Part shown: piece by piece, positions 12,236-59,026 of the stretch
Layout: every line of letters starts with the position of its first letter
How positions within the stretch are numbered: position 1 is the stretch's first letter
Origin: a bacterium
GTDB lineage: Bacteria > CG03
DNA length: 64,000 bases
Assembly: GCA_043825615.1 (NCBI GenBank)
Contig: JBDRRS010000003.1
Location: forward strand, 125,379 to 189,378
Direction of reading: 5' to 3'
Notes under the pieces: generated by a model
Seen by the model: only the letters and a program-made list of their open reading frames with translations
Database searches by the model: none
What the model was told of the DNA's origin: nothing
Translations under genes and position numbers: made by a program

Positions 12236-12249
12236 TTAGAGGGTTTTTT

Positions 12250-13167: not shown

Positions 13168-13272
13168 TACGATATTGTAATAATTAAAAGCCGGAACGCA
13201 AAAAGTTCAAGGGAAGAGGCGGGTAACGGGGAGCGGGCCGGGGCTTTGCAATAAAAGAAAGGGTAAAAGAAA

Positions 13273-13359: not shown

Positions 13360-13382
13360 ATTGCTAAAATATAAAAAGCGAA

Positions 13383-16503: not shown

Positions 16504-16511
16504 TTTGTCTA

Positions 16512-17786: not shown

Positions 17787-17789
17787 TCG

Positions 17790-18680: not shown

Positions 18681-18684
18681 TTGA

Positions 18685-40338: not shown

Positions 40339-40443
40339 TAGACCGAGGATAGTACCGATTGTTATACCGAAGTTACGCAGTTCCTTTTTCTCGCTCTTGG
40401 AATTTTCTATCTTTTCAGTAATCGTAAACCTCCTTGAAATACA

Positions 40444-41457
40444 TTATTTTTTTTTCTTTCCGAGCATCGTAAAAAAACCGCCTTCCCTGCCCCCTGTAAA
40501 AAGCAGCCGGCTTTGGATAAGAATGTGTTCAAGCCAATTCCCCCTCGGGTTCGGGTTAAACAGATTCTCGTCTTCCGAAAACGACTTTGGGTTTCTTAAT
40601 TTGGGAATGCTGTTTATAAAATCAAAACCGGTTTGATCGAACCATTTCAGCACTTCGCCGATAGTGTGCTTTGATTCGTGCGGATTTTCATACTGGTCTT
40701 TATACCACGTGAATTTTTTGTGATAACCGATGTTTCTGCTTCTCAAACGCTGGTCTAAAAACTTGAAATGCCCGCCGGAAAACTTGAAAACAGCGCGGCG
40801 GATATCGGTGGTTAACCTGCCGTAACTGTTATAAAGCCCGATAATAATATATCCTCCTTTTTTTACAAGTTTCGATATGGACCGGAAACCGGCAAAAGGG
40901 TCAGCCGTGTGGTGAAGAACGCCGTTACAAATGACAAGAGGAAAACTTTCTTCTTTGAAGATGGGTTTAAACAGGTTCATTTGATAGAATCCCACTCTTT
41001 CAAGATTATTTTCCGCCCTGAAATTGTTGGCTAACCTTAAAGAGTTAAAGCAAATATCAGTCCCGAAGGTGAACCTGTGAGCGACTCCCAGAAAATTGGT
41101 TAGTTGACCCGTGCCGCAGCCGACTTCCAGAACTCTGATATTGAAAGGAACCTGTTTGTTTAACAAACGCGCAAAAATTCCCTTCCGGGCTTTTTGAATA
41201 AGGTCGCCTATGTTTTCAAAATCTTCATAGTTCGGAAACGGCGTTTTTTCATAGAATGCTTTTATTGTATCCGTAATACCGCCTTCTTTATTGTTTTCCC
41301 CGTTTGCCCAAAAAAGAAGGGGAATGCCGTCCTTGATTTGATAACGGTTACGGCAATCCCCGCATTTTATCCCGGTATCGGATATTTTCAGATTTCCTCC
41401 GCATGAAGGGCACATAAAAATCTCCGAATGTTTTTCCATGTGTTTTAACATTATCAC
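40444..41457 (-). CDS. class I SAM-dependent methyltransferase with N-terminal zinc-ribbon
   Basis: CPSCGG...CGDC zinc ribbon; LEVGCGTGQ motif I. Confidence 0.8.
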   Translation of the reverse strand: MIMLKHMEKHSEIFMCPSCGGNLKISDTGIKCGDCRNRYQIKDGIPLLFWANGENNKEGGITDTIKAFYEKTPFPNYEDFENIGDLIQKARKGIFARLLNKQVPFNIRVLEVGCGTGQLTNFLGVAHRFTFGTDICFNSLRLANNFRAENNLERVGFYQMNLFKPIFKEESFPLVICNGVLHHTADPFAGFRSISKLVKKGGYIIIGLYNSYGRLTTDIRRAVFKFSGGHFKFLDQRLRSRNIGYHKKFTWYKDQYENPHESKHTIGEVLKWFDQTGFDFINSIPKLRNPKSFSEDENLFNPNPRGNWLEHILIQSRLLFTGGREGGFFTMLGKKKK

Positions 41458-41462
41458 AACGG

Positions 41463-43298: not shown

Positions 43299-43417
43299 TA
43301 TAAAAAATTGCTTGGTTTCGTCATTGCCTGTTAATATTACTATAAAACTTCTTTTGCTGTCAATAAAATTGACGAATGCCGGAATTTTTAATAAAATCAG
43401 CAGATTAAGGAGGGGTC

Positions 43418-44434
43418 GTGAAAATAGCGGTTGTCGGCGCGGGCTACTGGGGAAAGAATTTAATACGGAATATGTATCAGCTGGGCGCTCTTGCCGCTGT
43501 TTGTGATGTTGACGGGACAGGTCTGGAGAAAATTAAAAGAACTTTCCCCGGAATAGAGGCGGAAACCGATTTGTCTTCGGTTCTGAACAATCCGGAAATT
43601 AAAGCGGTGGTCATTGCCACTCCCGCCTCTACGCATTATGCCGTAGCGAAACAGTGCCTTTCCGCGGGAAAACACGTTCTTGTTGAAAAGCCGTTCACTC
43701 TTTCTTTAAAAGAAGCAGACGAACTTATTTCCATTGCCCGCGGGAAAAAACTCGTTCTGATGGTCGGGATGACATTTATTTATAACGCCGCCGTCCGGAA
43801 AGTGAAGGAATTGATTCAGTCGGGCGCTCTGGGAGATATTTACTATGTTTATTTTGAGCGGGTGAACCTCGGAAAAGTCAGGACCGACGTAAACGTGTGG
43901 TGGAACCTCGCTCCCCACGACATCTCAATTGCTCTTTACTGGCTTGATTCAAAAATTGACAATTTAACGGCCCGCGGCGCCTGCTATCTGCAGAAAGACA
44001 TAGAGGACGTCGCATGGGCGAACATAAAGTTCAAAAACGGCGCCTGCGTGCTTATCCACACTTCATGGCTTCACCCCCATAAGACGAGAAAGGCGATTGT
44101 CGTCGGCTCAAAGAAAATGGCCGTCTATGACGAGATTTCATCCGATATGAAAATTCAGATTTACGATAAGGGAATAGACAAAAAGGACATATCAAAACGT
44201 CTGGGTGAATACGAGAATTTCGGACAGTTTCAGCTCATCCAGCGCGCGGGGGACATTTACATCCCGAAAATAAATTTCACCGAACCGCTTTTAGAAGAAT
44301 GTTCTCATTTTATCGACTGTATAAAAACAAACAAACGTCCGCGGACGGACGGCGCCTGGAGCCGTGAGATTGTAAAGGTTCTGGAAGCGGGCCAGAAATC
44401 AATGAAGAAAAACGGCAGACTTGTCAAGCTGTGA
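43418..44434 (+). CDS. Gfo/Idh/MocA-family oxidoreductase (WbpB-like UDP-sugar 3-dehydrogenase)
   Basis: [13 protein letters not shown] Rossmann; EKP motif. Confidence 0.8.
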
Positions 44435-45045
44435 ATTACAAAATCTGCAGAAATGTTAAAATCGGAAAAAATTCCGAGGTCGGTGATTTTTCCATAATAG
44501 GACTCCCTGAAAAATCAAAATCCGCCAAAACGGTTATCGGCGACAACGCGACAATCCGCTCTCACACGGTCATTTATGCCGGTAACCTCATCGGGAAGAA
44601 TTTTAATACCGGTCATATGGTGATGATAAGGGAATCGAACAGAATAGGCGATAACGTAAGCATCGGCACGGGCTCCTGCGTTGAACACCATGTCAAAATC
44701 GGCAACGGCGTCCGTCTGCACTCAAATGTTTTTGTGCCGGAATACACGACGCTGGAGGACGGCTGCTGGGTGGGGCCGAATGTTGTTTTTACCAATGCGC
44801 GGTATCCCAAAAGCAAAAACGTAAAAAAGCGGTTAAAAGGAGCGCTGGTAATGAAAGGGGCCAAAATCGGCGCGAACGCGACCGTTCTTCCGGAAGCGGT
44901 CATCGGCAGGAATGCCCTCGTCGGCGCGGGTTCCGTCGTAACAAAAGATGTCCCTGACAATAAGGTCGTTGCGGGCAACCCCGCGAAAGTGATAAACGAC
45001 ATAAGAAAAATTTCCGTTTATGGAAAGAAAAATTTCCCTGGTTGA
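44431..45045 (+). CDS. hexapeptide-repeat N-acetyltransferase (WbpD-like)
   Basis: Left-handed beta-helix hexapeptide repeats throughout. Confidence 0.8.
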
Positions 45046-46135
45046 TTTGGCCGCGCAGTACCGGCTGATAAAAAGCGAGATAGACGAAGCGGTCAGCCGC
45101 GTCCTGACGAATACCAATTTTATAATGGGGAAGGAAGTAACCGATTTTGAATTGAATTTCGCCGGATTCTGCGGTGTTAAGTTCGCCATCGGCGTCGGCA
45201 ACGGGACGGACGCCCTGTATATTGCGCTCCGCGCGCTTGGAATAGGGGCGGGCGACGAGGTCATCACGGCTCCGAACACGTTTATCGCCACGACGGAGGC
45301 GATATCAATGACGGGAGCCAGACCCGTTTTTGCCGACGTGGAGGAAAACAGTTTTACGATTGACGCGGATATGATTGAAAATGCAGTCACCTCCAGAACA
45401 AAGGCAATCATACCCGTTCACCTTTACGGGCGTATCTGCGATATGGAAAAAATAAAAGCGATTGCGCAAAAGCGCGGTTTGAAAATAATTGAGGATGCCG
45501 CCCAGGCGCACGGCGCGGAGCTCGGAGGAATTAAAGCGGGCTCTTTTTCGGATGCCGGTTGCTTCAGTTTTTATCCGGGAAAGAACCTCGGCGCAGCGGG
45601 CGATGCGGGCGCCGTTGTTACCAGCGACGAGAAACTTGCCGGTAAGATAAGAATGTTAAGAAATCACGGCCGGCAGAAAAAATACATTCACGAATTTGAA
45701 GGGGTAAACAGCCGGCTGGACACAATTCAGGCGGCTGTCCTGAACGTCAAACTGAAACACCTTTCTGAGTGGGTGAAAAAAAGAAACGAGAAGGCGGAAA
45801 TCTACCGGGAATTGCTTGGCGGGTGCAAAGGAATTAAACTTCCCGGGATTCCGCCCTGCGGTATCCACGCGTGGCATCTTTTTGTTATCCGGTGCGCGTT
45901 CAGGGATAAGTTAAAGAGTCAACTTGAAATCGAAAACATTTCCTGCGGAATTCACTACCCTGTTCCCCTTCACCTCCAGCCCGCGTACAGCCGGCTGGAT
46001 TATAAGGAAGGCGATTTCCCTGTCGCCGAGCGTCAGGCAAAAGAAATCCTTTCGCTTCCTATTTATCCCGAATTACAGGGTGACGACCAGAGAAGAATTT
46101 GCGAGGTGATAAAAAAAACCTGCAGGGAGAACTGA
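45020..46135 (+). CDS. DegT/DnrJ/EryC1/StrS-family sugar aminotransferase (WbpE-like)
   Basis: Family-typical motifs incl. GNGTDAL, putative PLP lysine in SFYPGKNLG. Confidence 0.85.
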
Positions 46136-47080
46136 ATGTATAAAGAAAAAAAGATTGCCCTTGTGATTCCGGCGCGCAACGAAGAGGTCTTGATAATACC
46201 GACGCTAAAAGGCGTGCCGGAACTTATTGATAAGGTCTTTGTGGTTGACGACGGCAGCTCTGACAAAACGGCGGAACTGGTCGGTGAATACGCGGGAAAA
46301 GATAAAAGGGTCGTACTGCTGCGGCACGGAAAAAATTCGGGTGTCGGGTCGGCGCTGATTACGGGATACAGGAAGTCGGCGGAAGAGGGCTACGATATCT
46401 CCGTGGTAGTCGGAGGCGATAACCAGATGCCGCTGGATAATGTCACGGATTTTCTTGACCCGCTGATTGCGGGCGCGGCGGATTATACGAAGGGTAACCG
46501 GTTTCTCGTCGAGGAAAATGTTTTTGACGATATGCCGTCTCTCCGCCTGATAGGAAATTCCGTAATTTCCTTAATCACTAAAATTGCTTCGGGTTATTAT
46601 AAGATTTTTGACTTCGTCGAGGGTTATACCGCAATTACAAAGAAAGCGATTGAGACAATTAACTGGGACAAGGCGTGGAAGGGCTACGGTTACCCGATGG
46701 ATTTTTTAATCCGGTTGAACGCATATGGTTTCAAGGTAAAGGATATTCCCCGCCGGGCAATATATCTCCCCGGAGAGAAACAGACCCAGATCAAGGGGCT
46801 GCCTTACGCAATAAGGGTAACGCCGATGCTTGTGCGGGGTTTTCTGTGGAGAATTGCGAAAAAATATGTGTTCAGGGATTTTCATCCTCTCGTATTATTT
46901 TACTTCGGAGGAATAATAATGCTGCCTGTCGGAGTGCTGTTCGGCATATATCTTTTACATCAGCAAATAGCGGGTTTCGGAGTTTCCGGACCCCGTGCGA
47001 TATTATGCGCGCTTTTAATTATGGCAGGTTTACAGTTTCTCTTTTTCGCGATGCTATTTGATATGCAGCAGAGTGATTAA
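46136..47080 (+). CDS. glycosyltransferase family 2 (polyprenyl-phosphate glycosyltransferase-like) with C-terminal TM helices
   Basis: IPARNEE, VVDDGSSD, DGD-like motifs. Confidence 0.8.
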   Translation: MYKEKKIALVIPARNEEVLIIPTLKGVPELIDKVFVVDDGSSDKTAELVGEYAGKDKRVVLLRHGKNSGVGSALITGYRKSAEEGYDISVVVGGDNQMPLDNVTDFLDPLIAGAADYTKGNRFLVEENVFDDMPSLRLIGNSVISLITKIASGYYKIFDFVEGYTAITKKAIETINWDKAWKGYGYPMDFLIRLNAYGFKVKDIPRRAIYLPGEKQTQIKGLPYAIRVTPMLVRGFLWRIAKKYVFRDFHPLVLFYFGGIIMLPVGVLFGIYLLHQQIAGFGVSGPRAILCALLIMAGLQFLFFAMLFDMQQSD

Positions 47081-48824
47081 AAATTTCAAATTTCTTTGCG
47101 TTCTTGCGGTATTGCTCACGTTTTCAGGATGCGCTGAGCGGAAAGAAGTTGCCGATATTCTGCTTATTTATAATTCAAAAAAAGAACAGACCTCCGATGT
47201 CAATTTCCGCAAAATTTCCGAATATTACGGTCTGCTCTGCGGCAAAACTGATTTATCCGAAACGGCGCTAACGGAAGATTTATTCGGGAATATCACAACC
47301 GCCGGCATAAACGGGGCGAATCTTGAAAGATTAAAACCGGATGAGTTGTCTCTTCTCAAAAGTAAAATAAGCGCCGGAGGAATGAAATTAATCGTTCTCA
47401 TGCAAGAATCGGCTGAATACAAAAATCTTAAAAAATTAACAGGTAATGAAGTTCAGGGCGTTGCGGAGGCGGCCCAAACCGGTCATTACAGCGTTTCGGC
47501 ACGCTTTCCCCTGATAACACGGGAGTTTACAGGCCATGAACTAAATTATCCGGATATGGAACGTATTCCCTGCATAAATGTAAATAAGAATGCAGTGAGC
47601 GCGTTCCCTTTAATAGCGGCCGGCGACGGTCAGGCGGTGTTTATTTACCATAAATCAGGGAAAGGAGAAATATTTTTTATTGCCGGTAAGGAATGCCCGA
47701 ACCTTGAAGAGAATCAGATGTATAAAATTTATTGCAGCACTGAAAGTTTTTACAACTTGCTCCCGGCAATGACGGCAATACGCTACTCTATGGGAAACAG
47801 ATGCTGGCGCAACGAGCGGAACTATGCAAATCTGACAATAGACGACCCTCCCCTGCGTCAGACAACCCGTCCGAAGGACTGGATGGGTCTGGATTATTTC
47901 GGCTTGCTTAAAGAATTAAAAAAACATAATTACCACATAACAATTGCTCTTATTCCCGGCTGGATGAAGTTTACCGAAAAAAGCGTGGTCGACCTCTTTC
48001 TGCAGAACCCCGACAGGTTCTCCATAGTTCAGCACGGCAACAATCATGACGGCTATGAATTCTGGCACTATGACCCTCAACCCGGCGACTCCCGCCCGCC
48101 AAAACCATACCGCGACCAGGACGAAGACCTTGCCGAAGGTATGCAGAGAATGAACGGTTTTTCAAAAGTTACAGGAATTCCCTGGGGACGACTCATAATT
48201 TTTCCCGGCGGAATCTGTCCGTTAAGAACATTTAAACTGCTGAAAAAATACAACTTTCTCTGTACTGTAAACTACCAAAGAGAACCTCTCGGGGAGAAAC
48301 CCGCAGACACCTACGACTATCAAATGTATCCCGCCGAAATGAGTTTCGGTTCTTTCCCGTCCGTGCGCAGAGAACATCCGGGACTGCACTTCCCTGTTTT
48401 GAACTTTATTCTGTTTAGTATGTTTATTGATACGCCGTTCCTGATTTATGACCACGCATGGGATTTTAAGGAAGGCGCTAAAACGTATAATTTACTGGCG
48501 GATGAAGTTAACAGAGTTACCGGCGGCGTAGAATGGCGGAGTTTGGGAGAAATCGCCGAACATCTGTATCTTGAGAGAGAACGAGCAGACGGAGTCATAG
48601 AAGTAAAGATGTTCAGCAACGGAATTGTTCTGGAAAATAAATACGAAGTTCAAAAAAAATACAGGATAACCAAAAGAGAAAACTTTGATGTGCCTGTTAA
48701 GTGTGTCAGGGTAGATAACGCAAAAGTAAAATATAAGAAAAAGGAAGATTACATTTGCGTAACTACGGTCATTGATGCTCATTCGGAAAAGAAAATCAGG
48801 ATTGAATATAAAGGACCGAAATGA
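47058..48824 (+). CDS. hypothetical lipoprotein, possibly polysaccharide-deacetylase-like
   Basis: Lipobox LTFSGC; LTIDDPP and HGNNHD weakly resemble NodB-type motifs. Confidence 0.35.
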   Translation: MICSRVIKNFKFLCVLAVLLTFSGCAERKEVADILLIYNSKKEQTSDVNFRKISEYYGLLCGKTDLSETALTEDLFGNITTAGINGANLERLKPDELSLLKSKISAGGMKLIVLMQESAEYKNLKKLTGNEVQGVAEAAQTGHYSVSARFPLITREFTGHELNYPDMERIPCINVNKNAVSAFPLIAAGDGQAVFIYHKSGKGEIFFIAGKECPNLEENQMYKIYCSTESFYNLLPAMTAIRYSMGNRCWRNERNYANLTIDDPPLRQTTRPKDWMGLDYFGLLKELKKHNYHITIALIPGWMKFTEKSVVDLFLQNPDRFSIVQHGNNHDGYEFWHYDPQPGDSRPPKPYRDQDEDLAEGMQRMNGFSKVTGIPWGRLIIFPGGICPLRTFKLLKKYNFLCTVNYQREPLGEKPADTYDYQMYPAEMSFGSFPSVRREHPGLHFPVLNFILFSMFIDTPFLIYDHAWDFKEGAKTYNLLADEVNRVTGGVEWRSLGEIAEHLYLERERADGVIEVKMFSNGIVLENKYEVQKKYRITKRENFDVPVKCVRVDNAKVKYKKKEDYICVTTVIDAHSEKKIRIEYKGPK

Positions 48825-49858
48825 GAATATTGGTGGATATTCTGCACCCGGCGCATGTTCATTTTTTCAAAAATGCAATTCGGGAATGGGAAAAAAGGGG
48901 ACATCAGGTTTTGACGACAGCACGGGATAAAGATGTAACGCTTAATTTGCTTAAAGCGTATAATATTGATTTTACGGAGATCAGCAAAATAGGAAAAGGG
49001 ATATTCGGACTCGCGGGAGAACTGGTCTTACGGAATTGCCGGCTGATTAAAATAGTAAAAAATTTCAGCCCGGATATTATGTTCGGAGTAGCGGGAGTTT
49101 CTATTGCGCCCGTCGGTAAGATTACGGGAATACCGTCTGTTGTTTTCACCAATAACGAACATGCCGCATTATCCAATAAAATCACATTTCCCTTTGCGGA
49201 TGTAGTATGTACTGCATCATGTTTTAAGAAAAATTTCGGAAAAAAGCATGTATGGTTTAATGGATATCACGAGTTGGCTTATCTTCACCCCGATTATTTT
49301 AAGCCGGACGAATCCGTTTTGAGGGAATTAAACCTTACAGTGACGGATAAATTCGTTATTTTCAGATTTGTTTCATGGGGCGCGGCTCATGACATCGGGG
49401 AAAAATGGCTTTCCCTTCAGGAGAAGCGCAAATTAATAAAAAGCGCAGAAAAATATGCCAGGGTGTTCATTACTTCGGAGTCGCGGCTGCCCCCTGATTT
49501 AATGAGATATCATATATCTATTTCTCCGGAGAAAATGCATTCTCTGTTGAGTTTTGCCCGCCTGCACATCGGAGAAAGCGCAACAATGGCTTCGGAAAGC
49601 GCGGTGTTAGGTGTGCCTGCTATCTTTGTTTATTCTTCCCCCCGGGGATATACCGACGAAATCAGGGATAAATATGAACTGTTATTTACATTTTCCAGTA
49701 AAAACCATAATTGGAGAAAAATTGAGAATAAATTGATAGAATTACTGGAGGACGAAAATATGAAGGAAAAATGGCAAATGAAAAGAAATAAAATGCTGGC
49801 AGAAAAAACTGATGTCACTAAATTTATCGTAGGGCTGGCGGAGAAATATTGTGGTTAA
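48821..49858 (+). CDS. DUF354-family protein (GT-B-like)
   Basis: N-terminal MRILVDILHPAHVHFFKNAI matches DUF354 signature as recalled. Confidence 0.65.
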   Translation: MRILVDILHPAHVHFFKNAIREWEKRGHQVLTTARDKDVTLNLLKAYNIDFTEISKIGKGIFGLAGELVLRNCRLIKIVKNFSPDIMFGVAGVSIAPVGKITGIPSVVFTNNEHAALSNKITFPFADVVCTASCFKKNFGKKHVWFNGYHELAYLHPDYFKPDESVLRELNLTVTDKFVIFRFVSWGAAHDIGEKWLSLQEKRKLIKSAEKYARVFITSESRLPPDLMRYHISISPEKMHSLLSFARLHIGESATMASESAVLGVPAIFVYSSPRGYTDEIRDKYELLFTFSSKNHNWRKIENKLIELLEDENMKEKWQMKRNKMLAEKTDVTKFIVGLAEKYCG

Positions 49859-50648
49859 ATCATCCGAAGCCCATATAAATTACGATAGGCAATGGTTTAT
49901 CGTGGTTAAAAAAATGCATGAATTACGTCCCCCTGCCGTAGAGTTGCGTGATGAGTTAATCCTAAAGTTGTTTCCTCTAAAAGGAAATAATCTTACCTGT
50001 CTTGACGTGGGATGCGGATACGGAAAATATACTTTGGAACTTTTAAAGAGAGGATTTTCCGTCCATGCTTTTGACGGTTCTGAAGATGCCGTCAAAAAGT
50101 TAAAAGAAAGTGTCCCTGAAGATTCTTCCGGCAGGCTGACCGCGCAGGCGGCAACCATTGAGAATTTTACATCAACTGCCCGGTATGATTTTATTCTGGT
50201 ATCGGAAGTGCTGGAGCACATTAAAGATGATTGCGGCGCTGTAAAAAAATTATTTTCTTTGCTGAAAGAAGACGGAAGAATGATTATCTCGGTCCCGCAT
50301 GATATGAAGTTATGGACAGTGACGGATACTTTTGTCGGGCACCTTCGCCGATATAGCAAAGAGTCGCTTATAAAAATTTTACCCTCGGGAAAAATAAAAA
50401 TTGAAAAAATGTGGTGTTACGGATTCCCCTTCCTGTGGATGGTACGTCTGTTGCGAAAAATCTTCTGTATGGGCCCTGAATACATTGTTGCAAAGACAAC
50501 AAAACCGACTTTTTATGGAACGTTGCTGAAAATTTGCACATGGATATTAGGGAGATTACTCTTTTTTGACAGGTTGTTTTTGAATGTATTCACGGGTATA
50601 GGGCTGATAACTGTGATTGTAAAGCATAATGGGATTAATAAAGATTAA
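49851..50648 (+). CDS. class I SAM-dependent methyltransferase
   Basis: LDVGCGYGKYT motif I. Confidence 0.75.
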   Translation: MVKSSEAHINYDRQWFIVVKKMHELRPPAVELRDELILKLFPLKGNNLTCLDVGCGYGKYTLELLKRGFSVHAFDGSEDAVKKLKESVPEDSSGRLTAQAATIENFTSTARYDFILVSEVLEHIKDDCGAVKKLFSLLKEDGRMIISVPHDMKLWTVTDTFVGHLRRYSKESLIKILPSGKIKIEKMWCYGFPFLWMVRLLRKIFCMGPEYIVAKTTKPTFYGTLLKICTWILGRLLFFDRLFLNVFTGIGLITVIVKHNGINKD

Positions 50649-50651
50649 GAA

Positions 50652-51869
50652 ATGAATTTTACAGGCAATATCAAAAGTCAGCTGTTTAAAGAAAGTATTT
50701 CCGGTGTGCTAAAATATTCCGAGGCCGGTAATTATGCGGGTTATTCGAAATTTGACGCTTTAAATTCACCTTTGCTGTGGAAAATTTTCGGGAGCAGTTC
50801 TATTTACCGATTTATAATTATTCAAATGGTCAACAGAATCCCGTTTCATATACGCCCGCTTTTGGGCGTTAAAAAACTGCGCAACCCCAAAGGAATAGCG
50901 AATTTTATAAAAGCGTACTGCGCTCTTTATAAGATAGAATCTTTGCCGGAATACTTGAATAAAATAAGAGAATTGTCGGATTGGCTTTTGAAAAACAACT
51001 CCAACAAAAATAACAGATATCATGGAGTTTGCTGGGGGTATAATTTTCCGTGGCAGAACCCGGGATTTTATGCGCCAAGATATTTTCCGAATTGTATTGT
51101 AACTTCGTTTGCCGGAGATGCGCTGCTTTACGCTTATGAGTTAACCGGAGATATTAAATATATGAAAACCGCGGAAAGCGCCGCAACTTTTATTTTAAAA
51201 GACCTTCCCGTTATGGAAGAAACCGGGGATGGGAAGTGCATAGGCTACGTTCCGGCAAAATTGCGCTGGAAGGTTATAAATATTAATTCGGTGGCTGCCG
51301 GTTTTTTATCCCATTTATTTGCCGTTTCAGGCGAAGAAAAATATATTGATGAAGCAAGACGTTTAACTAATTGGGTGATTTCCAAAAAAAAAGAGGGCGA
51401 TGTATGGTCTTATACATATCCGGAATCTTCTTCAGGAATAATGCCTGACAACTACCACACCGGCGGAATATTAGACGGTATTTTTGATTACATGGTTAAC
51501 AGCAAGGACCACACATATATGGAAACTTATATGAGAGGTTTGAATTTTTATAAAAGGAGATTTTTTAAATCTGACGGCGCTCCGAAACTGTTTGATAAAA
51601 AAGAGTTTCCTTACGATATTCACAGTGTTGCACAGGGAATAATTACATTTGTTAAAGCGGGTAAATTTGATTCGGATTATATGGATTTTGCAAAGAATAT
51701 AGCCGCATGGGGCATCAGGAATATGCAGGATGCAAGCGGACATTTTTACTATAGGAAATATAAATTTTATACCCTGAAATATGATTTAATGCGCTGGAAC
51801 AATTCATGGATGACCTGGGCTCTGGCGGAACTGTTGCTGCAATTATTTAAGGGGACGAATGAAAAATAA
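50652..51869 (+). CDS. hypothetical protein (405 aa)
   Basis: ORF in track within glycan locus; no motif recognised. Confidence 0.4.
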   Translation: MNFTGNIKSQLFKESISGVLKYSEAGNYAGYSKFDALNSPLLWKIFGSSSIYRFIIIQMVNRIPFHIRPLLGVKKLRNPKGIANFIKAYCALYKIESLPEYLNKIRELSDWLLKNNSNKNNRYHGVCWGYNFPWQNPGFYAPRYFPNCIVTSFAGDALLYAYELTGDIKYMKTAESAATFILKDLPVMEETGDGKCIGYVPAKLRWKVININSVAAGFLSHLFAVSGEEKYIDEARRLTNWVISKKKEGDVWSYTYPESSSGIMPDNYHTGGILDGIFDYMVNSKDHTYMETYMRGLNFYKRRFFKSDGAPKLFDKKEFPYDIHSVAQGIITFVKAGKFDSDYMDFAKNIAAWGIRNMQDASGHFYYRKYKFYTLKYDLMRWNNSWMTWALAELLLQLFKGTNEK

Positions 51870-53343
51870 AAAAATTATTCTGATTTTCTGCGGTGCAAAA
51901 GGAAAAGGCGTTCGGTTACCACTGGCTGTTCTTGTTCTGGCACGGCCTTTAATTGACGCTGGATTTGGCGTTGAACTTTTTGATCTCCGGGTGGAGAAAT
52001 TTTTTTTAAAAAATCCGAAGGATGTTTTATTGATGGGCGTAAGTGCATGGACAGGAAAACACAGCATCCCGCAGGCGATTGAAGTTTCCAGGAAAATAAA
52101 AAAAATAAATCCGGAAATACCTATTGTCTGGGGCGGCCCTCACGCTACTTCATTGCCGGAAGAAACGGCCAACAACAAATACATAGACATTGTTGTAAGA
52201 GGTGCGGGTGAAGAATGCCTGTTGGAGCTGGCGAATAAAATTTATCGGAACAAAGACATTTCAGGCGTTAAAGGGATAACCTATAAGAAAAATGGTCAGG
52301 TCATTTCCACGCAGGACAGGGACATTCCTAATATTAATAAAATCACTCACCTGCCGTACGATTTGCTGAAACTGTCCAGATATCCGGCGCTGCGGTATAA
52401 CTTTGATTATCTTTCCAGCGTGGGTTGTCCTCACAGATGCATGTTTTGTTCCGAACCGTTTTTTTCCAAAAGAAAGTGGAATGCAAAGGACAATGAGGTG
52501 ATGGCTGCCGAATTGGATTACATAGTCAAAAAATTCAATCCTGAACGCATTGTAATAAATGATTCCAATTTTTTCGTAAACAAAAACCGCGTTTTGAAAT
52601 TTTGCCGGAATAAGATTGAACGGGGGTACAAATTTAAAATACATGCTGAGTGCAGAATTGATTATTTTTCGAAATACGATTCCGAAACGCTGTTGCTTTT
52701 GCACCGAGCCGGTTTTTCTGAAATTCTGTTCGGCGGGGAATCAGGTTCGGATAGGACATTGCAATTTATCAAAAAAGATATAACGTCGGAACAAATTCTG
52801 AAAAGCGTAAAAAAAACAAAAGATTTTGATATTACGCCGGTTATCAGTTTTATGATTGGTTTTCCCGAAGAAAATCAGAAACATCGCTTAAAAACAATTG
52901 AAATTTATGACAGAATTATGAAAATTAATCCTAAAGCACGGATAAACGGAATCCGTGTTCTGACTCCTTTCCCCTGCACGGGTTTGTATGATTATGTGAA
53001 GGAAAAACATCATTTCCATCCGCCTGAAACACTTGAAGAATGGGGCAAATACACACTGTATGAAACGAATTATGCCACATGGTTGAGCAAGAAGGAATTG
53101 GACATTATTAAAAATATATCAATAGTGGCAAGATATTTTTATGTGTTTAAACTCCTTAAATCGTGGTCATTGCGGGAACTCGTCGCAAGACACCACTCGC
53201 TTTTACGGGGGGTTGCTTCCGTATTTTTCAACCATCTTTTTTATCTGCCCGCAGTTTTCAGGTGGAAATTGCGTTACTTCAATAATGCCGTGGAATTCCA
53301 TTTGTGGAACAGAATTTTGCAGGCATTTACGGGTAAAAAATAA
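51859..53343 (+). CDS. B12-binding domain radical SAM protein
   Basis: CPHRCMFC (Cx3Cx2C) cluster motif preceded by a B12-binding-like N-terminal domain. Confidence 0.8.
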   Translation: MKNKKIILIFCGAKGKGVRLPLAVLVLARPLIDAGFGVELFDLRVEKFFLKNPKDVLLMGVSAWTGKHSIPQAIEVSRKIKKINPEIPIVWGGPHATSLPEETANNKYIDIVVRGAGEECLLELANKIYRNKDISGVKGITYKKNGQVISTQDRDIPNINKITHLPYDLLKLSRYPALRYNFDYLSSVGCPHRCMFCSEPFFSKRKWNAKDNEVMAAELDYIVKKFNPERIVINDSNFFVNKNRVLKFCRNKIERGYKFKIHAECRIDYFSKYDSETLLLLHRAGFSEILFGGESGSDRTLQFIKKDITSEQILKSVKKTKDFDITPVISFMIGFPEENQKHRLKTIEIYDRIMKINPKARINGIRVLTPFPCTGLYDYVKEKHHFHPPETLEEWGKYTLYETNYATWLSKKELDIIKNISIVARYFYVFKLLKSWSLRELVARHHSLLRGVASVFFNHLFYLPAVFRWKLRYFNNAVEFHLWNRILQAFTGKK

Positions 53344-53442
53344 GATATGATGTGTTAATGATTAATATTAGGTAGAAGGATTTTTACTGGATACCCCCGG
53401 AAACCTATTTTGTATTGCTCTGTTATGAGAGGGGGTGCCGTT

Positions 53443-54642
53443 ATGCAGAAAAAAATGAATCTTTTATTCGTGGGTACTGTTAGAGGCGCTGATCCGCCTA
53501 ACCGCATCAATGCTCTTATAAAAATGGGTTATGATGTTTCTATACTCAACATAGATAGAGAATTTTTTTCATATAATACAATAAAAGAGCTTACTGGACT
53601 GAAATCTGTTACAAACTTGTTCTACGAGAAAAAACTTTATTCTGCTATGAAATCTAAAATGGCAGAAGCAGCAAAAATGCTGTTAAGTACATTTCATCTG
53701 TATGAAAATAAGGAAGTTAAAGCGAAGGTGAAAGAAGTTATACTCAAGAATAAGATAAATATGGTGTATTGCCACTGGGGAGTAACTGTTGTTCCGCTAA
53801 TAGCCTTGATTAAAAACGAGTTTCCAAATCTGCCAGTTATCCATGAGATACTGACTTATCCTTCTTCGGTAAATCCATTAGAGATTGCTTTTCAGAATTT
53901 TTTCTACGGGAGGGTGGTAAAAAAGATCGACGGCAGGATACATTGCAGCCGGCGGATGTATGATTATTTGAACTCCCGGTTTAATTTAAAACAACGGGGA
54001 AAAGATTTAATTCAGCCATTATACTTTAACAGGCGTTATTTTTATAAAAAAAGGCTGCCAGCGTTATCGGAGAAAGATAACGTTCCTCATATTATATTTA
54101 TTGGTATTGGAAGAGAGAACTTCTCTAAAAAAAGACCGTCTGATGATATTAGAAAAAAAATTCAGGAAATAACCAAATTGCAAATACATTTCTGGATTAG
54201 TTCAAAAAACAAAAATATAGAGGAAAGCGATTACGTGCATTTCTACCCATGGCTTAACTCTTTTGAAGTAGCCAACGGTTCCATGGCGACTTTTATGACT
54301 CAATTCGACGCTTGCATCTATTTACACAATTTAAAGAAAAATTATGCAATGTATGAAAACAGTTTACAGACAAGATTCCGATTTGCTCTCACGGCGGGTA
54401 TACCGATAGTCATGCCTATCGGGTATTACGGAGCTTGTCAGGATATTGTTGAAAAATACAAGATTGGATTTGCTTATAAAGATGTCGGGGAACTCAAAGC
54501 AAAATTATCCGATAGAGAACTTATGGCGGAATACCGGAAAAATGCCGTCAGGGCCTCGCCGGAGTTTACTTTTGAAAACAACTTTGAAAAATTGGACAAA
54601 TTTGTTAAAGAAATAATATATCCGGAATCGCATGCTGTCTAA
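53443..54642 (+). CDS. hypothetical protein, possibly GT-B-fold glycosyltransferase (start moved to MQKKMNLLF)
   Basis: ORF 53410-54642 in track; C-terminal region weakly GT-B-like. Confidence 0.35.
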   Translation: MQKKMNLLFVGTVRGADPPNRINALIKMGYDVSILNIDREFFSYNTIKELTGLKSVTNLFYEKKLYSAMKSKMAEAAKMLLSTFHLYENKEVKAKVKEVILKNKINMVYCHWGVTVVPLIALIKNEFPNLPVIHEILTYPSSVNPLEIAFQNFFYGRVVKKIDGRIHCSRRMYDYLNSRFNLKQRGKDLIQPLYFNRRYFYKKRLPALSEKDNVPHIIFIGIGRENFSKKRPSDDIRKKIQEITKLQIHFWISSKNKNIEESDYVHFYPWLNSFEVANGSMATFMTQFDACIYLHNLKKNYAMYENSLQTRFRFALTAGIPIVMPIGYYGACQDIVEKYKIGFAYKDVGELKAKLSDRELMAEYRKNAVRASPEFTFENNFEKLDKFVKEIIYPESHAV

Positions 54643-55291
54643 AATAAAAAAAGCAATAAAAAGCACTGTATTTTATAACCTTTTGTGGAAAATGTGGATG
54701 CTTCTTGCCCTCTGGGAGTGGTATTTGAGAGGAAAGCCCGATCCGCCGCCGCCGCCGGTAAAGCAGAATACGGTTAAAGAATACGCCGCGCGGTTCAATT
54801 TAAGCACGTTAATTGAAACGGGCACCTATCTTGGCGATATGATTAGGGCAACCGGAAATTGTTTTAACCGCATTTTTTCAATTGAGTTAAATGAAACACT
54901 CTATGAAAAAGCAAAGAAAAAGTTTTCCAAATTTTCTCACATTCAGATTATTAACGGAGACAGCGGCAGGATTTTGCCGGATTTACTGCGCTCTATTTCG
55001 CAGCCATGCCTGTTCTGGCTTGATGCGCACGAAGGAAATAAAGATACGCCGGTTACTATGGAAATAAAATCTATTTTCTCACATTCTGCTTCGGGGCACG
55101 TGATACTTATAGATGATGCAAGATTCTTTGTCGGGCGAAATAACTATCCTGCCATTGAAGAATTAAAGGAATTTGTCCGCGATCACCGCCCGGACCGGGT
55201 GATGGAAATTAAACATGACATTATTAGAATTCACCCCGCTTTACAGGATACAGGCGCAACTCCGCGTAGCGGGGTTCACGGAACCAAATAG
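54632..55291 (+). CDS. putative methyltransferase-fold protein (CmcI/TylF-like)
   Basis: IETGTYLGD and DAHE motifs; proline-rich linker. Confidence 0.45.
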   Translation: MLSKIKKAIKSTVFYNLLWKMWMLLALWEWYLRGKPDPPPPPVKQNTVKEYAARFNLSTLIETGTYLGDMIRATGNCFNRIFSIELNETLYEKAKKKFSKFSHIQIINGDSGRILPDLLRSISQPCLFWLDAHEGNKDTPVTMEIKSIFSHSASGHVILIDDARFFVGRNNYPAIEELKEFVRDHRPDRVMEIKHDIIRIHPALQDTGATPRSGVHGTK

Positions 55292-55320
55292 AATGTATCA
55301 AGCGGATAAAGTATAAAACC

Positions 55321-56637
55321 ATGGGCGCGGTAAAAGACAGTTTGAAAATTTTCAGCGGCAGGATTGCCGTTATAATTGCCGGCGCGCTCGCTAACATTCT
55401 TATAGCCCGTATCCTCGGTCCCGAAGGCCAGGGAATTTACACGTTGATTATTTTACTTCCGTTTTTGGCTGCAAAAATAGGGGATTTGGGAATAGGTCAT
55501 GCTAACGTGTATTTTTTGGGAAAGAAGGAACATGGTTTACAAAAAATTGCAAATAATTCTTTTTCACTGGCAATTATTATCGGATTACTGGTTTTGGTTA
55601 TCAGCGGATTTGCATTAAATTTTTTACAGCCCTCATTTTTTAAGAATGTACCTCTCGCTTATTTGCGCGTTGCTCTTTTAACTTTGCCTTTTTTTCTTTT
55701 CATATCTTATTTCGGCATGATACTGCTCGGAGCAAACAGAATAAACGAATATAATGTTGTCCAGAATTTTTTACGCAGCCTTCCTCTGCTTTTATTTTTA
55801 CTGTTTTTTCTGGTTATTTTGAAAAAAGGTCTTTTGGGCGCAACGCTCGCATGGGCATTAACTAATATAATAGCGGGGGCGGTTTCTATTTATTTTGTGC
55901 AGAGATTAACCGGAATAAAATGGGCAGTAGATTTTAAATTTTGCAAAGAGCTAATCAAATTCGGCGTCAAAGGATATTTAGCCACCATAATGAATTTTCT
56001 CAACTATCGCCTTGACATATTGCTGATAAATTTTTTTACGAGCGCGGTACTCGTCGGTTATTACAGTATATCCGTTCTGATTGCCGAGACCCTTTTATTT
56101 TTCCCGACTTCCATCGGTCTTGCGCTTTTTCCCCGGACGGCACAGTCAAGCCGGGAACTTCCCTACCGTTCCACCCCTCAGATATGCAGGGTCTCGCTTT
56201 TTCTAACTTTTATTAGCGCTTGTATCCTTTTTGTTTTAAGCAAGAGTATTATTCTGATTCTTTTCGGGAAACAATTTATCCCTGCTTATCAACCGCTGAA
56301 AATTCTGCTTCCCGGAATAGCGGCTTTGAGTGTCTGCAACATACTCAATTTTGACCTGATAGGCCGCGGAAAACCGATATTTGTTACTTACGCTTCAGGG
56401 GTTGCCCTTGGAATAAACATAATATTGAACCTGCTGTTTATTCCAAGGTGGGGAATCTCCGGCGCCGCTCTCTCTTCAACTTTATCTTATGTGGTAATGA
56501 CGGCTATCGTTCTGAAAAAGTTTTTAAGCATCTCGGAAAATAAATTCCTGGATACTGTATTTATCAAACGTGAGGATTTTAAAGTCATCCGGAGCAAGTT
56601 CGCGAAATTTGCAGAAAAAATCCATTATGGAAAATAA
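55321..56637 (+). CDS. oligosaccharide flippase (Wzx/MOP family)
   Basis: ~12 TM polytopic protein with family-typical N-terminus. Confidence 0.75.
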   Translation: MGAVKDSLKIFSGRIAVIIAGALANILIARILGPEGQGIYTLIILLPFLAAKIGDLGIGHANVYFLGKKEHGLQKIANNSFSLAIIIGLLVLVISGFALNFLQPSFFKNVPLAYLRVALLTLPFFLFISYFGMILLGANRINEYNVVQNFLRSLPLLLFLLFFLVILKKGLLGATLAWALTNIIAGAVSIYFVQRLTGIKWAVDFKFCKELIKFGVKGYLATIMNFLNYRLDILLINFFTSAVLVGYYSISVLIAETLLFFPTSIGLALFPRTAQSSRELPYRSTPQICRVSLFLTFISACILFVLSKSIILILFGKQFIPAYQPLKILLPGIAALSVCNILNFDLIGRGKPIFVTYASGVALGINIILNLLFIPRWGISGAALSSTLSYVVMTAIVLKKFLSISENKFLDTVFIKREDFKVIRSKFAKFAEKIHYGK

Positions 56638-59026
56638 AAGAAAAAAAATAAGGGCGGTTATCTCTGACGGAATAAAAATACCGGGATCTCTGTTTTCCGC
56701 AATTTCAATTGTGTGGCTCGGAGTGGTTACGTCCCGGTTTATGAAGTATCACCGGATTAATCCGGATATATCATATTTATTCAAATTGGAAGGTCAATTC
56801 AATCTGGCCATTTTTTTACGTTTATTAACCGAATACATATCCGCATTGTTCCTGGTCGTCGGCATTATGGCAGGCGCTTTTTTTATCGGAAGAAAAGTCA
56901 TTCAATTGCTAAAAATTAAAATGAGTTCGCCGCTCGAAGATTTAACTTTTTCGCTCGGCGCCGGCCTCGGGTCTTTGGGTTATATCGTTTTCTTTCTGGG
57001 AATTTTCGGTTTATTGTACAAGTCAATTTTTTATCCTTTGTGGCTTGTGCTTTTCGTACTGGGAATAAAAGAAATTTTACCTCTGGCGAAAACGGGCGCT
57101 TCAAAGAAATTTCAGATTTCATTACTGCACAAAATTATTATTTTTCTTTTGTTTATACCCGTCCTGTTTAATTTTTTTATAAGTTTCACGCCGGAAATGT
57201 TCTACGATTCATTAAATTACCATGTGGGCCTTTCAAATTATTACAGCGTTTATCACAGGATCCTTCCAAGCCCCTACAAGATTGTTTCACATTACCCGCA
57301 CCTGATGTCCATTGTTTATCTTATGGGAATGATGCTGAAAAGCGAAATGACGCCTAAATTAATCAATTTTTCCTGCGGTTTGATAACCATTTTAGGAATA
57401 TTTTACTTTTGCGAAAAGAACTTTAAAAGCCGGATTACAGGCATTATCGGCGTTGCGGTTTACTATTTTACTCCGACGGTCATCAGCAGGTCATGGGCGG
57501 CAACAACGGATATCGGACTGACGTTATTCACCTTCCTTAGTTTAGCCGCTTTAATTAATTCGCTGACTAAAAAAGACGATAATAAGTGGCTGCTCCTGTC
57601 TGCGGTTTTTGCCGGATTTGCCATGGGCACAAAGTATTCGGGAATTTTATTTACTTCCGGTTTGGTTGCCGTGTTATTCTTTTCGAAAGATGATTATTTT
57701 TCTGTAAAAATAAAAAAAATTTTGTTATTCGGCGCAATTTCGCTAATGATATATTCCCCGTGGCTTATTAAAAACTATGTGGAATCCGGCAATCCCGTTC
57801 ACCCGTTCCTCGGCAAATACTGGAAAGTCAAACATTCACATCAATCGCACACCGAACAAATCAAAAATTATTTTTCAGCGCCTGTGCGCAGAAAACAGAA
57901 TTTTCTAAATCTTCTGACGGTGCCGTGGAACCTCAGTATAAAAGGAGGCGGCAGCAACAAATACAGTTCGCCGGATTATTTTATGCTCGGAGCCGTTTTC
58001 CTCGCGTTTATTCCGTTGTTTTTTTTCATTAACGCCAAAAATAAAAAAACGGTTTATAAACTTTTATTGTTTTCGTTTTTTACTTACGTTTTATGGGTTC
58101 TGTGGGCGCCGGATACCAAAATTAAGTATTACACTCCGGCGATACCCGCATTAAGCGTGGCGGCGGCTTACACTATCGTAAAGATTGAAGAAATAAATAA
58201 ATACCTGGGAAAGATGCTTTTAGTGGTTTTTATACTTTTGATAACTATTAACTTTTTATTTATGGTCCCGCTCGCGCACGTTGTTTATAAACCCTTTTCC
58301 ATTCTGACGGGCAGCGTATTAAAAAGCGAATATCTTTCTGCATCCAGGCCGAGTTACCCCTGCCCCTCATACGGCGCCTACAGGTACGTAAACGAAAACC
58401 TTTCCGCGGATGCAAAAATCCTGATGTTCAGGGACTCCAAATGCTATTACATAAAAAGAAAATTCGTTACTTCCGATATCGCCGGGCACAATCCTCTGAT
58501 TGAGTTCTTAAAAAATGCGGGCGACGCGGATGAATTTTACAGTTATCTCAAACAAAAAAACTTCACGCACATCATCGTAAATATACCCGAAACAATCAGA
58601 ACCGCTGTCTATGGGACATTATACTTTGAAAAAAAGGACTTTGCGGTTCTAGACGGATTCTGGAAAAAATACATGAAAAAATTATATGATTTAAACGGCG
58701 TTTATCTGTATGAAATTCTGTCCGAAGAAGAGGCATCAAAGCCGCGCACCCCACCGGAGAACACTGTGGAAAAAACCTATGTAATTTTCAAAATGCAGGC
58801 GGCAGAAGAAAATATGAAAAGCGGGAACTGGAAAGGCGCGCTTGAAGACATAAACGATTTAATTGATAAAAATGTTGCGGACCACCGTACTTATTACTTT
58901 GCAGGGATTTGTTATTACAACCTCGGGGTCTACGTCAATGCGGAAAAAACCATGCAAATTGCGTATAAACTCAGACCCGAGGAAAGATACCGTCAACTTC
59001 TTGAGGATTTGAAAAAGAAATTTTAG
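56627..59026 (+). CDS. large polytopic membrane protein (GT39/GT83-like glycosyltransferase architecture) with C-terminal TPR-like domain (start moved to MENKRKK)
   Basis: Many TM helices over ~550 aa, then soluble C-terminal helical repeats; overlaps Wzx stop by 11 nt. Confidence 0.45.
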   Translation: MENKRKKIRAVISDGIKIPGSLFSAISIVWLGVVTSRFMKYHRINPDISYLFKLEGQFNLAIFLRLLTEYISALFLVVGIMAGAFFIGRKVIQLLKIKMSSPLEDLTFSLGAGLGSLGYIVFFLGIFGLLYKSIFYPLWLVLFVLGIKEILPLAKTGASKKFQISLLHKIIIFLLFIPVLFNFFISFTPEMFYDSLNYHVGLSNYYSVYHRILPSPYKIVSHYPHLMSIVYLMGMMLKSEMTPKLINFSCGLITILGIFYFCEKNFKSRITGIIGVAVYYFTPTVISRSWAATTDIGLTLFTFLSLAALINSLTKKDDNKWLLLSAVFAGFAMGTKYSGILFTSGLVAVLFFSKDDYFSVKIKKILLFGAISLMIYSPWLIKNYVESGNPVHPFLGKYWKVKHSHQSHTEQIKNYFSAPVRRKQNFLNLLTVPWNLSIKGGGSNKYSSPDYFMLGAVFLAFIPLFFFINAKNKKTVYKLLLFSFFTYVLWVLWAPDTKIKYYTPAIPALSVAAAYTIVKIEEINKYLGKMLLVVFILLITINFLFMVPLAHVVYKPFSILTGSVLKSEYLSASRPSYPCPSYGAYRYVNENLSADAKILMFRDSKCYYIKRKFVTSDIAGHNPLIEFLKNAGDADEFYSYLKQKNFTHIIVNIPETIRTAVYGTLYFEKKDFAVLDGFWKKYMKKLYDLNGVYLYEILSEEEASKPRTPPENTVEKTYVIFKMQAAEENMKSGNWKGALEDINDLIDKNVADHRTYYFAGICYYNLGVYVNAEKTMQIAYKLRPEERYRQLLEDLKKKF

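Follow-up and report, generated by a model that had tools for sequence, protein, structure and literature searches.

Which pathway is encoded by a locus that combines nucleotide-sugar enzymes, a flippase and a B12-binding radical S-adenosylmethionine (SAM) enzyme, and where would its product be attached? The question is raised by positions 43418-59026 of a 64-kb stretch of DNA from an uncultured bacterium (the window, to which all positions refer), where 13 open reading frames (ORFs), named g1 to g13 in order, all lie on the plus strand and are tightly packed, with overlaps of 4-26 nt or gaps of at most ~100 nt. They form a genuine 13-gene operon, the contiguous locus that an earlier reading made without database searches (the sequence-only reading) had described, although its gene list omitted the 399-aa GT-B glycosyltransferase encoded at 53443-54642. 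That reading proposed a surface-glycan locus, which our analysis supports, but it missed the two features that define the pathway type, namely that the GT2 protein is a predicted polyprenyl-phosphate sugar synthase and the terminal protein a predicted GT-C transferase. Pfam searches, which covered the window ORFs of at least 150 aa, returned the families it had named (GFO/IDH/MocA, hexapeptide acetyltransferase, DegT, GT2, DUF354, Methyltransf_23, B12-binding plus Radical_SAM, and Polysacc_synt). With moderate confidence, we propose that the locus encodes a Wzy-independent envelope glycosylation pathway that would depend on the GT-C transferase.

Three genes are central to this proposal:

46136-47080, plus strand: g4, putative GT2 polyprenyl-phosphate sugar synthase of the DPMS/AglJ/ArnC/GtrB type (Pfam GT2 1e-19; C-terminal transmembrane helices).
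55321-56637, plus strand: g12, MOP-superfamily (Wzx-type) flippase (Polysacc_synt 1e-16, MurJ 2e-7, MatE 2e-5; about 11 or more hydrophobic segments).
56570-59026, plus strand: g13, predicted GT-C (PMT_2) glycosyltransferase; its C-terminal part comprises a conserved extracytoplasmic domain and a short TPR-like tail (PMT_2 6e-14, PMT 4e-7).

The best NCBIfam matches of g4 were AglJ, PpgS, a Dol-P-hexose transferase and ArnC, all below cut-off (AglJ 93 bits against 325, ArnC 23 against 529). A profile of seven g4 orthologs matched the P. furiosus Dol-P-Man synthase in the PDB (5mlz, 1.4e-18), followed by ArnC and GtrB (~1e-8), and the hydrophobic segments of the protein fall at its C terminus, between residues 249 and 311. 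Because of these NCBIfam and PDB profile matches and of the terminal hydrophobic helices, we read g4 as a polyprenyl-phosphate sugar synthase type rather than a repeat-unit GT2. For the terminal gene, g13, the ATG at 56627 is the probable start codon, and the protein then has 799 aa. It had been described as an 800-aa polytopic membrane protein with a C-terminal TPR-like domain; the tail is indeed there, but it is short and weak (matches confined to residues ~725-811, the last ~90, with E ~1e-3), and the PMT_2 identity had gone unnoticed. Orthologs are 79% (sister contig L086), 43% (L088) and 23% (L084) identical, and in a TPxxxxDxLxxH loop motif the residue D213 is invariant across four orthologs, with identity down to ~22%. 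The family matches argue that g13 is a GT-C glycosyltransferase, with D213 as the predicted catalytic acidic residue of the outer loop. Single-sequence PDB searches with g4, g13 and the exported protein g5 (below) gave no matches, and it was profiles or structure models that returned them. Taken together, the GT2, the MOP transporter, as the putative flippase of the lipid-linked sugar, and the PMT_2 GT-C would make up the triad of three-component glycosylation systems.

The flippase and the three cytoplasmic glycosyltransferases (g4 and the GT-B enzymes g6 and g10) could also belong to a classical Wzx/Wzy locus for O-antigen or exopolysaccharide repeat units, whose phosphoglycosyltransferase, Wzy and Wzz would be encoded elsewhere, whose undecaprenyl diphosphate-linked unit would be built by g4, g6 and g10, and in which g13 would be an accessory modifier or a ligase- or polymerase-like enzyme. 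Lower GC content and cassette variation, both typical of O-antigen loci, fit this possibility, as do the g10 and g5 homologs that are found in ordinary Wzx/Wzy loci. We nevertheless consider it unlikely: no member of the Wzy_C, Wzz, O-antigen ligase or initiating phosphoglycosyltransferase (Bac_transf, Glycos_transf_4) families was found among the window ORFs of at least 150 aa, in agreement with the earlier remark that neither Wzy nor Wzz is obvious, g4 resembles monophosphate-carrier synthases rather than repeat-unit GT2s, g13 is a PMT_2 protein and neither Wzy_C nor an O-antigen ligase, and the pairing of GT2 and GT-C recurs without Wzy in L084.

If a sugar is loaded on a lipid carrier by g4, its identity would be set by the first three genes of the operon:

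43418-44434, plus strand: g1, Gfo/Idh/MocA oxidoreductase, putative UDP-GlcNAc 3-dehydrogenase (Pfam 1e-27; 90% identical in L086).
44431-45045, plus strand: g2, left-handed beta-helix (hexapeptide) N-acetyltransferase (Hexapep 1.6e-26; NeuD/PglB/VioB family at 94 bits, below cut-off).
45020-46135, plus strand: g3, DegT/DnrJ/EryC1 sugar aminotransferase (PF01041 1.5e-126).

The sequence-only reading called this trio WbpB/WbpE/WbpD-like. The comparison holds at family level; a WbpA-type UDP-GlcNAc 6-dehydrogenase (UDPG_MGDP_dh family), however, was not found among the window ORFs of at least 150 aa, and a route at the level of UDP-GlcNAc fits best. The top NCBIfam model of g1 is the archaeal UDP-GlcNAc 3-dehydrogenase (177.8 bits, under a 450-bit cut-off), and this match, together with the missing WbpA-type enzyme, is the reason why we consider UDP-GlcNAc3NAc a more likely product of g1-g3 than its uronic acid. 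The DegT aminotransferase and hexapeptide N-acetyltransferase are encoded together with the oxidoreductase, a trio kept in L084, L074, L082 and L003. In L083 (2589-4304, minus strand), oxidoreductase and acetyltransferase are fused in one 571-aa protein, which supports the view that both act in one pathway.

The operon also encodes an exported protein and two GT-B enzymes:

47058-48824, plus strand: g5, exported lipoprotein, predicted NDST1-type glycan N-deacetylase (AF2 model and Foldseek; signal peptide ending in FSGC).
48821-49858, plus strand: g6, DUF354 protein of GT-B fold, distantly MurG-like, putative glycosyltransferase on a lipid-linked acceptor (PF04007 3.5e-27).
53443-54642, plus strand: g10, GT-B-fold glycosyltransferase, GT4/Gtf3-like, 399 aa (AF2 model, pLDDT 87).

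The first of these had been left as a lipoprotein of unknown function, and Pfam and PDB sequence searches with it were indeed without match. Its AF2 model (pLDDT 89.9) has an N-terminal Rossmann/ThuA-like domain, a (beta/alpha) deacetylase domain and a C-terminal beta-sandwich, and points instead to an exported NDST1-like N-deacetylase: the best Foldseek match was human NDST1 (E=2e-14 over 555 columns, with a TM-score of only 0.47), and the CE4 deacetylase 3rxz and ArnD (8t0j) were also matched. Within the family D262 is invariant, and D263 and several His residues, among them H326 and H466, are nearly so; the DD pair and the His residues would fit a metal-dependent deacetylase, and a metal triad has been described for NDST1 (PMC10864358). 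We place g5 outside the cytoplasm because of its signal peptide and because relatives carry sorting domains of the type IX secretion system (T9SS). The family has no Pfam model and at least 373 homologs and has members in Wzx/Wzy polysaccharide loci, where in L089 the neighbours are DegT and GFO genes and in L090 there is a Wzy_C gene alongside. The fold match, the signal peptide, the secretion domains and the DegT/GFO neighbours in polysaccharide loci are the grounds for the putative role of g5 as an exported deacetylase, and the family appears to be one of widespread exported NDST1-like glycan deacetylases. A 579-aa protein preceding the radical SAM gene in L084 was considered as a remote g5 homolog and rejected (hhalign probability 0.1).

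The MurG similarity of g6 is weak (NCBIfam MurG 3e-7; PDB MurG 1f0k 0.007), and its family, DUF354, is uncharacterised, with a predicted glycosyltransferase fold and few conserved catalytic residues (PMC4520260). The g10 model matched the GT4 enzymes MshA, BshA, PglA and Gtf3 in Foldseek (E down to 6e-14, TM-score ~0.65-0.68), and the g10 homolog mentioned above sits in the Wzx/Wzy polysaccharide locus L087.

An aminosugar made by DegT, deacetylated and handed over by a PMT_2 protein also recalls the modification of lipid A or lipopolysaccharide core by Arn, Lgm or Flm systems, in which the GT2 would load the sugar on undecaprenyl phosphate and, after deacetylation and flipping, an ArnT-family GT-C would attach it to the phosphates of lipid A. 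PMT_2 is the ArnT family, the DegT protein reaches 220 bits with ArnB, the GT2 matches include ArnC and the structural matches of g5 include ArnD, and the closest homolog of the radical SAM gene adjoins a YdjC (NaxD-type) deacetylase and a GT2. Set against this, the scores are far under cut-off (ArnB 220 against 631 bits, ArnC as above), g5 is predicted to be exported and of a family found in exopolysaccharide loci, unlike ArnD and NaxD, which act at the cytoplasmic face, two extra GT-B enzymes, a Wzx-type flippase and a TPR-like tail are present, and related modules adjoin pilin-like genes. We regard a lipid A modification as improbable, and return to the GT-C-dependent pathway.

What distinguishes the locus further is its set of tailoring genes, three of which make up a segment that varies between close relatives (variable region 2):

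49851-50648, plus strand: g7, class I SAM methyltransferase with a C-terminal hydrophobic helix (residues 238-257), variable region 2 (Methyltransf_23 5e-21; absent from L086).
50652-51869, plus strand: g8, cytoplasmic (alpha/alpha)6-toroid protein, epimerase- or hydrolase-like, variable region 2 (405 aa in the sequence-only reading; absent from L086).
51859-53343, plus strand: g9, class B (B12-binding) radical SAM enzyme, variable region 2 (PF02310 4.6e-13, PF04055 4.3e-17).
54632-55291, plus strand: g11, weakly methyltransferase-like protein (Methyltransf_24 E=0.004; PDB 1vbf 0.013; 82% identical in L086).

Two SAM methyltransferase-like proteins had been announced; g7 clearly is one, while g11 qualifies only weakly. 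A profile of g8 matched GH76 (2e-6) and cellobiose 2-epimerase (4e-6) in the PDB, homologs match GH88, GH127 and C5-epim_C, and the family counts 2391 representatives, some of them fused to GT2 or Asn-synthase domains. As for g9, an N-terminal B12-binding domain and a CxxxCxxC core place it in class B of the radical SAM enzymes, and the CPHRCMFC motif that had been picked out earlier contains C190, C194 and C197, invariant in 19 homologs. No NCBIfam cut-off of a characterised subfamily (HpnJ, BchE, PhpK, HpnR, GenK-like and others) was reached, the best scores being ApyD 155 bits (cut-off 750), BchE 137 (481) and HpnJ 124 (~577-578). To our knowledge, BchE and HpnJ do not methylate. Since the nearest profiles include these two as well as ApyD, C-methylation and rearrangement are both possible, and the most likely reaction of g9 is one or the other, on an N-acyl aminosugar; this is the weakest step of our model.

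The closest g9 homolog (51% identical; L091 1406-5646) lies between a second B12-radical SAM gene and the YdjC-family deacetylase and GT2 already mentioned. This arrangement recalls HpnI/J/K or NaxD logic.

In a pathway of the HpnI/HpnK/HpnJ kind, the product would be a free membrane glycolipid, with the GT2 glycosylating a lipid, the deacetylase exposing an amine and the B12-radical SAM enzyme rearranging the aminosugar. The match of g9 to HpnJ and the pairing of a YdjC protein and a GT2 with the radical SAM gene in L091 would suit such a product, the YdjC family being the one that includes HpnK, and relatives have LPG_synthase_TM proteins, which are like HpnL. We think it very improbable, as the HpnJ score is far below its cut-off and is exceeded by those of ApyD and BchE, no squalene-hopene cyclase or other hopanoid gene was found in the window, flippase and GT-C imply onward transfer of the sugar, and g5 would act outside the cytoplasm. 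HpnI, HpnK and HpnJ are the three genes required for the bacteriohopanetetrol (BHT) cyclitol ether (PMC5462960).

The locus probably extends to a divergently transcribed unit at 38967-43298:

38967-40034, minus strand: SGNH/GDSL-type esterase or acyltransferase, anchored in the membrane by its N terminus, at the conserved left end of the locus (Lipase_GDSL 1.6e-5; hydrophobic at residues 12-42).
40012-40338, minus strand: small SxtJ-like membrane protein, variable region 1 (Pfam SxtJ 1.2e-5; two hydrophobic segments; absent from L086).
40444-41457, minus strand: class I SAM methyltransferase with an N-terminal Trm112-like zinc ribbon, variable region 1 (Methyltransf_11 4e-16, Trm112p 0.002; absent from L086).
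41463-43298, minus strand: NodU/CmcH-type carbamoyltransferase, variable region 1 (Carbam_trans_N 8e-101, Carbam_trans_C 3e-76; replaced in L086).

The two units are enclosed by housekeeping genes, with ispH, plsC, cmk, aroA and tyrA on the left and rho and ilvN on the right. Antisense ORFs within the locus (for example 44833-45411 and 52261-52704) were taken as non-coding, given their full-length overlap with well-supported plus-strand genes. A promoter and terminator scan gave counts no higher than in shuffled sequence, and the only sensibly positioned promoter-like hexamers are those in the divergent intergenic region 43299-43417. Neither Rfam elements (cobalamin and SAM riboswitches included) nor transfer RNA genes were found in the 64-kb window.

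Comparison with L086, which carries a matching locus between matching housekeeping genes, separates a constant from a variable part. There, g1-g6 and g11-g13 are 74-93% identical, g10 is 61% identical, and the SGNH protein has a 75% identical ortholog at the matching position. Two segments are replaced. In place of window 39950-43381 (the SxtJ-like protein, the methyltransferase and the carbamoyltransferase), L086 has an unrelated insert with one sizeable ORF (309 aa, no Pfam match), and in place of 49867-53749 (g7, g8 and g9) it has a single B12-radical SAM gene whose product is only 28% identical to g9 and non-orthologous. From these two replacements it follows that the tailoring genes are exchangeable cassettes within a fixed scaffold. 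Variation among close relatives is drawn from this one sister contig, a metagenome scan with g13 having given a single locus. The IS200/Y1-type transposase gene with a helix-turn-helix domain between cmk and aroA (35748-36584, minus strand) is absent from the otherwise collinear L086 and is probably a recent insertion.

Beyond close relatives, parts of the gene set recur together. Full-length g9 orthologs, 40-46% identical, occur in Desulfobacterota-like and other genomes (other phyla), and g4-like GT2 genes (41-44% identical) lie within a few kb of them; in one genome scan, a g4-type GT2 was near 3 of 5 radical SAM orthologs vs 0 of 75 more distant homologs (Fisher p=1e-4). A g7-like methyltransferase stands directly upstream of the radical SAM ortholog in L001, L003 and L004 (31-39% identical) and as a 41% identical frameshifted fragment in L006, and an operon of GT2, GT4, AsnB, methyltransferase and radical SAM genes is common to these four. 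An LPG_synthase_TM protein adjoins the radical SAM gene in L001, L004 and L006. The oxidoreductase/acetyltransferase(/aminotransferase) set is also found in L003, L006 and L084, and a PMT_2 GT-C in L004 and L084. A single operon in L084 unites GT-C, GT2 (44% identical), oxidoreductase (45%), hexapeptide acetyltransferase (46%), DegT (48%) and radical SAM (40%) genes. The coupling of the diacetamido trio to a B12-radical SAM enzyme, on which the sequence-only reading had centred, is therefore not peculiar to this locus, as the combination recurs in unrelated genomes (L003, L006/L083, L084). The 43% identical g13 ortholog has a different B12-radical SAM gene and a methyltransferase as its immediate neighbours, and a homolog of the 40444-41457 methyltransferase adjoins a carbamoyltransferase in L071. 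Altogether, g9-type radical SAM enzymes are repeatedly tied to lipid-carrier GT2s, to enzymes acting on N-acyl groups and to GT-C transferases. Tailoring sets vary widely among relatives, as in L084, where a SPASM-type radical SAM gene and a polysaccharide pyruvyl transferase gene come after the B12-radical SAM gene (11481-13708).

The neighbourhoods of these related modules also bear on the acceptor. Their neighbours in L001, L083 and L084 are N_methyl pilin-like genes, a prepilin peptidase and PilS/R-like regulators, and the modules also include a protein with TMEM260_N and TPR domains. These genes would suit protein O-glycosylation, a specific case of the proposed pathway in which g13, through its C-terminal domain and TPR-like tail, would pick out an exported protein (pilin-like, S-layer or T9SS cargo), secreted or on the surface, and attach the tailored sugar to it. 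TfpW, a GT-C with a periplasmic TPR domain, glycosylates pilin (bioRxiv 10.1101/2020.04.19.049825), and by analogy this precedent and the pilin-like genes would favour a protein as acceptor. Type IV pilin motifs were looked for throughout the window, since relatives have them, and none was found; moreover, the locus has no candidate acceptor gene, and the TPR signal is weak, short and absent from the L084 ortholog. Protein O-glycosylation is accordingly a tentative possibility, on the doubtful side, and a protein or S-layer glycan, which the sequence-only reading had considered, is a possible product. In L083, the contig of L006, UbiA, FAD_binding_4 and short-chain dehydrogenase genes (16143-19143 and 12927-13397) resemble a decaprenyl-phospho-arabinose donor pathway; an N_methyl pilin-like gene and large TPR proteins are encoded nearby, a setting reminiscent of TfpW-type pilin arabinosylation.

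The GT-C-dependent pathway that we propose would run as follows, family and fold assignments, operon structure, synteny and cassette swaps being the observations from which we infer all substrates and the order of steps. UDP-GlcNAc would be converted by g1-g3 to a UDP-2,3-diacetamido-2,3-dideoxyhexose through 3-oxidation, transamination and N-acetylation, and g4 would load this sugar onto undecaprenyl phosphate on the inner side of the membrane. Once on its lipid carrier, the sugar may be lengthened by g6 and g10, and its tailoring would fall to the methyltransferases g7 and g11 together with the toroid protein g8 and the B12-radical SAM enzyme g9. The product would then be flipped to the outer face by g12, and g13 would pass it on to a protein or another glycan in the periplasm or at the cell surface. 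Outside the cytoplasm, g5 would remove N-acetyl groups, and the divergent carbamoyltransferase/methyltransferase/SGNH unit would add or remove O-substituents.

Several points weigh against this pathway. All nucleotide-sugar enzymes and the GT2 g4 score under NCBIfam equivalog cut-offs. Known PMT_2-type enzymes move single sugars; the two extra GT-B enzymes are hard to fit into a simple system that transfers one sugar and may work on a different acceptor, and they also leave a lipid-linked oligosaccharide possible. Three-component systems typically use GtrA or ArnE/F as their flippase rather than Wzx. An initiating transferase or a polymerase could lie outside the visible 64 kb. Finally, L086 does without g7 and g8 and has an unrelated radical SAM gene, so that these genes are not essential to a core pathway.

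The locus is probably an uncharacterised variant of a known pathway type, in which a diacetamido sugar is made, loaded on a lipid, tailored, flipped and attached outside the membrane. Antibiotic, lipid and cofactor pathways are well-known settings of cobalamin-dependent radical SAM enzymes, and the recurrence of the g9 clade with lipid-carrier GT2, methyltransferase and GT-C genes across several phyla suggests that the sugar of a lipid-linked intermediate is modified in a way not yet described. By exchanging radical SAM and carbamoyl cassettes in a fixed scaffold, such bacteria could plausibly diversify their surface in defence against phages or predators. The analysis also gives a probable function to a large family without Pfam model, the exported NDST1-like deacetylases of polysaccharide loci, and links DUF354 and an (alpha/alpha)-toroid family to the assembly of glycans.

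Elsewhere in the window, positions 1-10300 are of lower GC content (31% vs 42% for the whole window) and encode a type III restriction-modification pair (mod 2754-4751, res 4754-7528), a NOV_C-domain protein and several ORFs without Pfam match; this is probably a mobile or defence island. At 13383-17786, an ankyrin-repeat protein (347 aa), a 697-aa SdrD_B plus CarboxypepD_reg protein and a TPR protein are encoded side by side and are unrelated to the glycan locus. A 676-aa protein encoded at 61460-63490 (minus strand) combines a FlgD_ig domain with a CHU_C/Por_Secre_tail sorting domain, and the latter indicates that the organism has a T9SS. Sorting domains of this type near the locus are a hint, at group level only, that the organism belongs to the FCB group.

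We compared the locus with known systems; a literature search found no described glycan locus of this composition and no characterised B12-radical SAM enzyme in a bacterial envelope-glycan, O-antigen or polysaccharide locus. The enzyme roles of the trio are known from the WbpB/WbpE/WbpD (Pseudomonas/Bordetella), GnnA/GnnB and archaeal MMP0352-0350 routes to 2,3-diacetamido sugars, with which the locus shares the Gfo/Idh/MocA, DegT and hexapeptide genes in one operon. Unlike the Wbp route to the uronic acid, it has neither a WbpA 6-dehydrogenase nor a WbpI 2-epimerase, and its product is probably not a uronic acid. With Arn (L-Ara4N), Lgm (GlcN) and Flm/NaxD (GalN) it has in common a DegT protein, an ArnC-like GT2, deacylase tailoring around the lipid-linked stage and a PMT_2 transferase. 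The set of Arn equivalogs (ArnB, ArnC, ArnD and ArnT with ArnA) was not recovered here, ArnA being absent and ArnD a distant fold match to an exported protein, and the locus further differs by scores far below equivalog cut-offs, by the exported NDST-like deacetylase, by the Wzx-type flippase and by the radical SAM enzyme and extra glycosyltransferases. The set of GT2, N-deacetylase and B12-radical SAM enzyme is shared with HpnI/HpnK/HpnJ, where it acts on a lipid-bound N-acetyl-hexosamine (PMC5462960), whereas g9 is no HpnJ ortholog, a hopanoid context is lacking and the pathway would continue with a flippase and a GT-C.

TMTC and TMEM260 are eukaryotic O-mannosyltransferases, and TfpW is a pilin-glycosylating enzyme of Pseudomonas aeruginosa; these and g13 share a GT-C architecture with a C-terminal TPR region and, for g13 by prediction, a polyprenyl-phosphate sugar donor, and related bacterial modules stand beside pilin-like genes. 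The present locus differs in its sugar donor, in the very short TPR part of g13 and in the absence of a pilin gene from the window. Likeness to the AglJ-started dolichol-phosphate N-glycan assembly of Haloferax, with its AglQ/Agl32 epimerase (PMC3827465, PMC12624080), extends from AglJ, the best NCBIfam match of g4, to further glycosyltransferases, a methyltransferase, an (alpha/alpha)-toroid epimerase-like protein and a Wzx-like flippase; here, however, the final transferase is of the PMT_2 type and not an AglB/STT3 oligosaccharyltransferase, the host is bacterial and the AglJ score falls well short of its cut-off. We deem it unlikely that the locus is a bacterial analogue of archaeal N-glycan assembly, with an AglJ/DPMS-type start on undecaprenyl monophosphate, GT-B extension, rewriting by the cobalamin-dependent radical SAM enzyme while lipid-bound, en bloc transfer to surface proteins by PMT_2 and a swappable radical SAM slot that diversifies the glycan between close relatives; as part of that same unlikely scenario, the rewriting would be C-methylation or a ring or acyl rearrangement of the diacetamido sugar.

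Three-component extracytoplasmic glycosylation is known from Gtr O-antigen glucosylation and from CsbB/GtcA/YfhO. Unlike such systems, this locus probably makes its 2,3-diacetamido hexose donor in the operon itself, and it adds a B12-radical SAM enzyme, methyltransferases, two GT-B enzymes, an exported NDST-like deacetylase, a carbamoyltransferase unit and a TPR-like tail on the GT-C. Like them, it combines in one operon a DPMS/GtrB/ArnC-type GT2 with C-terminal helices, a MOP/MATE transporter and a GT-C with a conserved loop Asp. The pentofuranose systems of Citrobacter are three-component systems too (PMC11127046), and one published system of the kind uses a MATE-family flippase (PMC11127046).

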